A DNA stretch of 19,547 nt from a virus (Duplodnaviria > Heunggongvirae > Uroviricota > Caudoviricetes): the IMG/VR virus record IMGVR_UViG_2574180220_000004; one strand, 5' to 3'. Both the position numbers and the translations under genes were made by a program. Shown piece after piece: positions 14,269 through 14,423 of the stretch. How positions within the stretch are numbered: position 1 is the stretch's first letter; each line of letters starts with the position of its first letter. The notes under the pieces are model-generated. The model saw nothing but the letters and a program-made list of their open reading frames with translations, did not search any database and was not told the DNA's origin.

Positions 14269-14344
14269 GCCGACTTAGCTCAGTAGGTAGAGCAACTGAC
14301 TTGTAATCAGTAGGTCACCAGTTCGATTCCGGTAGTCGGCACCA
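14269..14344 (+). tRNA. tRNA-Thr (anticodon UGU), 76 nt with encoded CCA
   Basis: Cloverleaf built by hand: acceptor GCCGACT/AGTCGGC, D-arm GCTC...GAGC, anticodon stem ACTGA/TCAGT with loop CTTGTAA, T-arm CCAGTTCGATTCCGG. Appears identical to host thrU as recalled. Confidence 0.9.
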
Positions 14345-14347
14345 TAT

Positions 14348-14423
14348 GCGGGTATCGTATAATGGCTATTACCTCAGCCTTCCAAGCTGATGATGCGGGT
14401 TCGATTCCCGCTGCCCGCTCCAG
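14348..14423 (+). tRNA. tRNA-Gly (anticodon UCC), 76 nt with encoded CCA
   Basis: Acceptor GCGGGTA/TGCCCGC (one U-G pair), anticodon stem TCAGC/GCTGA with loop CTTCCAA, T-arm GCGGGTTCGATTCCCGC, discriminator U. Resembles host glyT with one acceptor-stem difference (from memory). Confidence 0.88.

Follow-up and report, generated by a model that had tools for sequence, protein, structure and literature searches.

The tRNA-Thr(UGU) and tRNA-Gly(UCC) genes of this Rac-like prophage probably form a cassette of the lambdoid late region, arranged as a unit of its own, serving codon supply, inherited within a phage-borne lineage and carrying a crossover inside tRNA-Gly. We analyzed the whole 19,547-nt stretch of DNA, referred to here as the window, and the features that bear on the pair are collected in Table 1. 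The proposed unit would run from a sigma-70-type promoter through a leader hairpin, the genes for tRNA-Thr(UGU) and tRNA-Gly(UCC), and a structured trailer to an intrinsic terminator. It is textbook knowledge that lambdoid and Stx phages carry tRNA genes downstream of Q. The finding is an ordinary one in this respect: annotations of this exact pair already exist in public genomes, and the pair is common lambdoid phage cargo and not new.

Table 1. Features of the window between the Q-like gene and the first lysis gene
Feature	Position	Strand	Basis and remarks
Q-like late regulator gene (DUF1133)	13374-13916	+	Pfam PF06576 at 1e-107; upstream of cassette
Intrinsic terminator-like hairpin and T-run, just after Q-like gene	13996-14037	+	Terminator scan
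Candidate sigma-70 promoter	14162-14205	+	Consensus scan, 9/12 matches
Leader hairpin	14213-14265	+	Folding; ends 3 nt 5' of tRNA-Thr
tRNA-Thr(UGU)	14269-14344	+	ARAGORN; Rfam; CCA encoded; identical to host thrU
Spacer TAT, 3 nt	14345-14347	+	Between tRNA-Thr and tRNA-Gly
tRNA-Gly(UCC)	14348-14422	+	ARAGORN; Rfam; CCA encoded; identical to host glyT except C6U
Structured 3' trailer, three long hairpins	14424-14480, 14483-14553, 14554-14606	+	MFE folding
Canonical intrinsic terminator GCCCGC-TTTT-GCGGGC and T-run	14630-14655	+	First one after the tRNAs
P21-type class II holin, first lysis-cassette gene	14715-14930	+	Pfam PF04971 at 1e-35; RefSeq annotation of sister prophage

Both genes are genuine canonical tRNA genes. 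ARAGORN found exactly two tRNAs in the 19.5-kb window, Thr(tgt) and Gly(tcc), both on the plus strand. Both also exceeded the Rfam RF00005 gathering score of 29 (73.8 bits and E=9e-15 for tRNA-Thr; 63.4 bits and E=6e-12 for tRNA-Gly). Therefore, the original prediction was right that two canonical tRNAs with an encoded CCA sit 3 nt apart. The range that it gave, 14269-14423, has the correct start, but its end lies one base beyond the CCA. Its likening of the genes to host thrU and glyT also held: compared with E. coli K-12, our host reference (locus L004), tRNA-Thr is identical to thrU at 76/76 positions and tRNA-Gly to glyT at 74/75. The sole difference is C6T, which produces the U6·G67 acceptor-stem pair that had been noticed at position 6. 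The host order given there, thrU-tyrU-glyT-thrT-tufB, is correct for K-12.

Recognition by ThrRS depends on G1-C72, C2-G71, G35, and U36. The window tRNA-Thr has the UGU anticodon and all of these elements, by virtue of its 76/76 identity to thrU. The glyT type is defined by the UCC anticodon, U73, G1-C72, C2-G71, G3-C70, C35, and C36, and the window tRNA-Gly sequence contains every one of them. Position 6:67 is outside the known GlyRS identity set, and therefore tRNA-Gly with U6·G67 should function. Because the known identity elements are all intact, processing and charging by host enzymes should occur. From the conservation of the tRNAs and the compensatory change at 6:67 described below, we infer that the window genes are transcribed, processed, and aminoacylated.

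The window is a Rac-like lambdoid prophage of E. coli. The annotation of a near-identical prophage, that of E. coli STK77-E under accession NZ_CP162190.1, begins with intR, xisR, rcbA, ralR, recT, recE, kilR, and sieB, continuing with DUF1367, DUF1364/YbcO, DUF1133, tRNA-Thr, tRNA-Gly, and a class II holin, after which come YdfR, lysozyme, rzoD, trkG, and terminase. Pfam assignments of the window ORFs agree with this annotation. The tRNA pair lies between the Q-like gene and the P21-type holin, the ATG of which is the downstream boundary of the intergenic region. The flanks of the pair have nothing in common with the host thrU operon beyond 1 to 2 nt. The mature tRNAs match those of the host operon, and their order, Thr then Gly, is the same. 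However, tyrU, thrT, and tufB are absent from the window, and the spacer is 3 nt long, compared with 8 nt plus tyrU plus 116 nt in the host. With prophage genes all around the pair and no homology to the host flanks, this is prophage DNA and not a chromosomal operon.

The prediction had also placed the pair downstream of a Q-like gene. The position is correct, but Q identity is only plausible. The product has a borderline match to PF06530 (Phage_antitermQ; 27.2 bits versus a cut-off of 26), and for the homologue in phage 683R6 the annotation is antitermination protein Q. A sequence search of the PDB returned Q21 as the best match at a nonsignificant E of 0.19, leaving kinship with Q21 unconfirmed by that route.

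Several other features of the prophage can be recorded here. On the plus strand, 1557-1735 matches the RalA antitoxin sRNA over its full length (225 bits), opposite the ralR toxin gene (ORF 1734-1967, minus strand), as in the Rac prophage. A sok-type antitoxin RNA lies at 10903-11073 (+; 101.5 bits), and a truncated Hok/Gef gene is annotated at the matching place in the sister prophage. Between the lysis cassette and the packaging genes is a TrkH/TrkG potassium-transporter gene (16711-17937, +), like trkG in Rac. Its codon usage is very AT-rich, with AUA at 35 per 1000 codons in the sister copy.

The pair appears to have a promoter of its own. The candidate consists of TTGACG (14162-14167), a -35 element TTGCGA (14178-14183), a 16-nt spacer, and a -10 element TATCAT (14200-14205), with an AT-rich stretch upstream (GC 0.30). 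The layout TTGACN-10-TTGNNN-16-TATYAT, followed after 7 to 8 nt by a hairpin, recurs in many unrelated upstream flanks of tRNA-Thr. The canonical terminator after the tRNAs is 60 nt ahead of the holin start. One alternative is that the candidate promoter is the late promoter pR' and this terminator is tR'. The tRNAs would then sit in a short constitutive late-leader transcript, an analogue of lambda 6S RNA. It is consistent with this that no canonical terminator stands between this promoter and the one just before the holin, that the double TTGACN/TTGNNN layout is conserved, and that promoter-hairpin-terminator units without tRNAs exist (loci L012 and L097). However, phage phi467 has the promoter-hairpin-Thr-Gly unit downstream of stxAB, and therefore the promoter there cannot be pR'. 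The L012 unit follows a methylase-like ORF and not Q, a reading that comes from sequence resemblance to a methylase remnant in phage 933W and not from annotation. Furthermore, pT in the 933W record is a tRNA promoter annotated as distinct from, and downstream of, pR'-qut-tR', and the window has a strong terminator directly after the Q-like gene. We consider the pR' reading unlikely, though it is the best of the alternatives to the cassette as a whole. By analogy, the position of the phi467 unit and the separate pT of 933W favor an autonomous cassette nested in the late operon, with the predicted pR' and tR' of the window placed close to where the Q-like gene ends. Phages differ in this arrangement: in JLK-2012 and HK639 the tRNAs directly follow tR', without space for a promoter of their own.

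The hairpin at 13996-14027 and the T-run just after the Q-like gene are a candidate for tR' or for the end of early transcription, by analogy with 933W, in which pR', qut, and terminators come directly after Q. The same place (13965-14031, +) has subthreshold Rfam matches to the Salmonella prophage sRNAs STnc370 (30.4 bits versus a gathering score of 54) and isrK, and it could be a short pR' leader RNA of a Gifsy-like Q module.

The predicted transcript is structured on both sides of the tRNAs. In the leader hairpin of the window, GGUUCU pairs with AGAACC as the outer stem, followed by a tandem GA/GA internal loop and the inner stem GGGG/CCCC. The hairpin begins 7 to 8 nt past the -10-like TATYAT. 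Across 15 distinct leader sequences, the hairpin has a 6-bp GGUUCY/RGAACC stem, an invariant tandem GA/GA loop, a G-rich inner stem, and a variable apex. Among 17 variants of the leader arms, 93.5% of cells were paired, three pairs had changed on both sides, and G·U was frequent. The frequent G·U pairs together with the double changes point to a strand-specific RNA structure. We also scanned for the leader hairpin as a general phage motif with a loose pattern. This gave mostly chance matches, and the only informative ones were the tRNA-less promoter-hairpin units at L012 2434-2494 and L097 7151-7209. A distant BLAST search of that unit against phage records matched only SerU-LTIIb, with no annotation beneath the match.

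The trailer as a whole (14424-14606) folds with an MFE of -83 kcal/mol (z = -5.9 versus shuffles). RNAalifold analysis of six diverged trailer copies, including that of HK639, gave 60 pairs, nine of them compensatory, plus invariant G·U pairs. A search of Rfam over 13950-14720 at a permissive E-value found no match for either leader or trailer, and both are structured RNAs without an Rfam counterpart. Other identities considered for the trailer were rejected. BLAST comparison with the PasA and PasC sRNA loci of E2348/69, which are holin adjacent in EPEC prophages, found nothing. In DLP12 (upstream of essD) and 933W, only the holin start and generic tRNA similarity matched. A 38-amino-acid ORF with an ATG start (14484-14600) is not conserved; it stops after 10 codons in HK639.

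HK639 (L008) has the three-hairpin trailer at 2556-2742, between a tRNA-Gly remnant and the terminator. The remnant (2511-2555) carries no annotation and corresponds to the 3' part of tRNA-Gly(UCC), anticodon loop through CCA. It comes after tRNA-Asn and ahead of the trailer, and it looks like what is left of a deleted Thr-Gly pair.

The closest known parallel is phage 933W, for which features were taken from GenBank record NC_000924. Its annotated order is pR', qut, terminators, the putative tRNA promoter pT, ileZ-argN-argO, a terminator, and stx2. Like pT-ileZ-argN-argO, the window cassette occupies the slot between Q and the lysis genes, has a putative promoter of its own before the first tRNA (a consensus match in the window) and a terminator after the last, and encodes tRNAs that read A-ending rare codons. 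Unlike 933W, it has neither ileZ nor arg tRNAs, a leader hairpin stands where the first tRNA would be, and 180 nt of structured trailer follow the last. The two systems are joined by IMG/VR arrays (39 plus 14) in which Thr-Gly is fused behind a 100% identical ileZ with the same promoter. Phages SfI, Sf6, ST64T, and P21 have tRNA-Asn(GUU) in tandem with tRNA-Thr(UGU) downstream of Q and over-use ACA (PMC3636060). The window resembles them in having tRNA-Thr(UGU) downstream of Q and in over-using ACA relative to the host, but the partner tRNA is Gly instead of Asn.

Both anticodons are served by few genes in the host. E. coli K-12 has a single gene for the UGU anticodon of tRNA-Thr and a single gene for the UCC anticodon of tRNA-Gly, and both tRNAs are of low abundance. 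The original prediction raised the possibility of codon supply for late genes and proposed a codon comparison with the host, which we made. ACA accounts for 33% of Thr codons and GGA for 26% of Gly codons in 20 window ORFs. The values are 23 to 31% and 18 to 25% in the sister prophage (L001) and 10% and 8% in a K-12 sample of 42 core genes. For the sister prophage, the difference from K-12 is significant in both gene sets (Fisher p about 1e-6 or below), and the enrichment of ACA and GGA in prophage genes is about 3-fold. However, AGA/AGG (about 12 versus 1.9 per 1000 codons) and AUA (about 11 versus 2.4) are more strongly enriched, and the window has no tRNA matching them. Furthermore, the early prophage genes are at least as enriched in ACA and GGA as the late genes. 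Therefore, the fit to codon supply is not specific: the enrichment that was suspected is there, but it does not single out the late genes. Except for Asn, the tRNAs of such arrays all read A-ending codons, which fits AT-rich phage genes. The window pair has the features of a lambdoid late-region cassette in that it occupies the slot from Q to lysis and its tRNAs match over-used codons, in an enrichment that is not codon specific.

Most likely, the cassette functions as a self-contained source of two low-abundance tRNAs, each with a single host gene. In a lysogen, transcription would start at the cassette's own promoter, and after induction Q-modified polymerase reading through from pR' would add to it. 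RNase P and 3' exonucleases would release the tRNAs, and the extra gene copies would raise the supply of tRNAs that read ACA and GGA/GGG. A host-identical second copy only doubles gene dosage, and the benefit may be small.

Defense against tRNA-cutting nucleases offers another possible function. P2 Old kills in P2-lambda interference by cleaving the host's tRNA-Thr(UGU) at paired CNG motifs within its anticodon stem, and PARIS AriB targets tRNA-Lys(UUU), Thr(UGU), and Asn(GUU) (PMC12445682, PMC12409363). The cassette might replace host tRNAs destroyed by such Toprim nucleases of competing P2/P4-type elements. The published targets (PMC12445682, PMC12409363) are indeed tRNAs of lambdoid arrays, including Thr(UGU) in the window, and Lys(UUU)-Thr-Gly occurs in 39 copies and Asn(GUU)-Thr-Gly in JLK-2012. 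Also, the glyT sequence has paired CNG at 28-30/40-42 and A37, features common to Old substrates. In 9 of 127 phage tRNA-Thr copies (the JLK-2012 type), the 3' strand of the anticodon stem is UCAUC or UCACC; one CNG motif and two base pairs are lost as a result, which are reported features of Old resistance.

However, the window tRNA-Thr is 76/76 identical to thrU. Its anticodon arm, ACUGA/CUUGUAA/UCAGU, is that of the host and not of the nuclease-resistant type, and 116 of the 127 phage copies likewise retain the host arm. T5-type lytic coliphages also encode a tRNA-Thr(UGU) with the same anticodon, which is nuclease resistant and rescues P2-Old/PARIS toxicity, but theirs has anticodon-stem changes and the window's has none. 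Host tRNA-ThrU, when overexpressed, protected little or not at all against P2 Old (PMC12445682), and tRNA-Gly(UCC) is not named as a target in PMC12445682 or PMC12409363. The prophage codes for RecET, and a Gam-type inhibitor of RecBCD was not identified in the window. Replacement of destroyed tRNAs is therefore improbable as an account of the cassette, and a counter-defense role for the host-identical allele of the window is unlikely. A broader version, in which lambdoid tRNA arrays are the temperate-phage counterpart of T5-type anti-nuclease tRNAs and are selected by P2 Old and PARIS, is a long shot. If it were true, host-identical copies would owe their effect to dosage or to resupply in a burst, or the hairpins of the leader and trailer would serve as extra substrates or decoys. 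The JLK-2012-type allele, with its broken CNG and 3-bp stem, would be the truly resistant form. Lambdoid tRNA-Thr alleles, which range from host identical to stem altered, are a ready test set for temperate-phage tRNAs against P2 Old and PARIS. The tRNA-Thr(UGU) of JLK-2012 (L005, 2495-2570) and eight IMG/VR copies, with a 3-bp anticodon stem and the 3' CNG lost, were not called by ARAGORN.

Codon supply from an inherited cassette is the reading that we favor, and the distribution of the pair bears on its inheritance. Sixteen complete E. coli genomes contain the 701 nt around the pair with at least 98% identity, and each has annotations for both tRNAs. The pair is shared together with its downstream region by phages phi467 (an Stx2f phage), PhiR47_1, 689R5, and 606R7 and together with its upstream region by phage 683R6. 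More diverged copies are in JLK-2012 and an LT-IIb prophage (SerU-LTIIb). For E. coli, we took the number of non-native copies to be the excess of matching places over genomes, because the 76-nt junction query joins the two native pieces. By BLAST, matching places exceeded the number of genomes by about 1,140 in 5,421 E. coli genomes. With one genome per species, the contiguous pair was found in E. coli, E. albertii, E. ruysiae, Shigella flexneri, Citrobacter braakii, and Enterobacter hormaechei. A 423-bp contig of the myxobacterium Corallococcus exercitus (L234; coverage 0.67) matches the tRNA junction of enterobacterial phages exactly, which most likely reflects assembly contamination.

IMG/VR and phage records together yielded 128 copies of the pair. 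Of these, 123 have the TAT spacer, and the flanks fall into more than 20 unrelated, unalignable types. A common spacer despite unrelated flanks argues for one phage-borne lineage and not for fresh capture, and such a lineage would recombine freely among lambdoid phages. Many copies are host identical (77/127 for tRNA-Thr and 54/120 for tRNA-Gly), and the remainder differ at few positions. The conservation of the tRNAs between unalignable flanks, together with the covariation at 6:67, indicates purifying selection. The most common arrays are Thr-Gly alone (52), ileZ(CAU)-Lys(UUU)-Thr-Gly (39), and ileZ-Arg(UCU)-Thr-Gly (14), and there are also rarer forms. In the four-tRNA arrays, the first tRNA is 100% identical to 933W ileZ, and the promoter TTGCAA-17-TATTAT, 9 nt ahead of ileZ, is pT as annotated in 933W. 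Therefore, the Thr-Gly pair and the classic tRNAs of Stx phages are parts of one cassette system.

The alleles at 6:67 of tRNA-Gly record an exchange within this lineage. Among phage copies, the pair is C-G in 65, U-A in 48, U·G in 6, and C·A in 1. This clean compensatory pattern indicates selection for a working acceptor stem. The two positions are also linked to the flanks. Copies with upstream flank type 0 always have T6, with A67 in 16 and G67 in 2 (the window and its sister, L001). Those with downstream flank type 0 always have G67 (44 copies), with C6 in 41 and T6 in 3 (the window, L001, and L128). In the window, upstream type 0 and T6 occur together with G67 and downstream type 0. Furthermore, in BLAST comparisons the match between 683R6 and the window starts at 14000 and is lost after the end of tRNA-Gly, whereas phi467 and its relatives match from about 14255 onwards. 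The linkage of flanks and alleles, together with these boundaries, argues for a single homologous crossover between positions 6 and 67. It would have joined a Q-type upstream module, normally U6-A67, to a P21-type lysis module, normally C6-G67, and U6·G67 is likely best read as a chimera of two phage alleles. Alternatively, U6·G67 could be a simple C-to-U transition, and there are four other U·G copies in other flank contexts. A crossover within tRNA-Gly explains the window allele best, which bears out the suggestion that the pair had been a recombination target. The chimeric allele would be an instance of tRNA genes acting as homology linkers in lambdoid mosaicism. Also, C6U is a natural tag that separates the prophage tRNA-Gly from glyT and allows the prophage share of the tRNA pool to be measured.

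The same mosaicism could mean that the pair is an inert relic, kept only as a homology patch through which modules are exchanged, or left over from use as an attachment site. The edges of the tRNAs coincide exactly with mosaic joints, one joint lies inside tRNA-Gly, and HK639 retains only a 3' fragment of tRNA-Gly. However, the tRNAs are conserved and position 6:67 shows compensatory change, which indicates that a working tRNA has been selected for. A duplicated tRNA 3' end is absent from the window, in which each 25-nt 3' end occurs only once with up to three mismatches allowed, and there is no integrase near the tRNAs; the integrase gene is at 1-1236, the far end of the prophage. These last observations also count against the earlier proposal of a former integration target, and a relic is very improbable.

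Least credible of all is recent capture of thrU and glyT from the chromosome of this host by this prophage, with loss of tyrU: the 76/76 and 74/75 identities would fit, as would a TAT made of the first base after thrU (T) and the last two before glyT (AT), but there is no further flank homology to the host operon, the identical Thr-TAT-Gly unit spans many phages, more than 20 flank types, and several genera, and diverged alleles (U6-A67; D-loop C16/C20) show a long phage history. The common spacer and wide distribution largely refute it. Host tRNA capture as originally proposed thus stands in that the genes are host-like, but not as an act of this prophage. Any capture of the pair would have been old and have happened only once. 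The TAT spacer hints at an ancient single deletion of tyrU from a host-type operon, a fit that we estimate would arise by chance with a probability of about 6%.

Two observations concern the anticodons of related phage tRNAs. One diverged tRNA body, in the second slot of ileZ-X-Thr-Gly arrays of IMG/VR loci and also at 2927-3003 of L002, carries the anticodon UUU, UCU, UAA, or AAA in different phages. In the LT-IIb prophage (L006, 1122-1197), a tRNA-Thr body has the anticodon UCU and two changes close to it. Both cases have the look of phage tRNAs whose anticodon has shifted.
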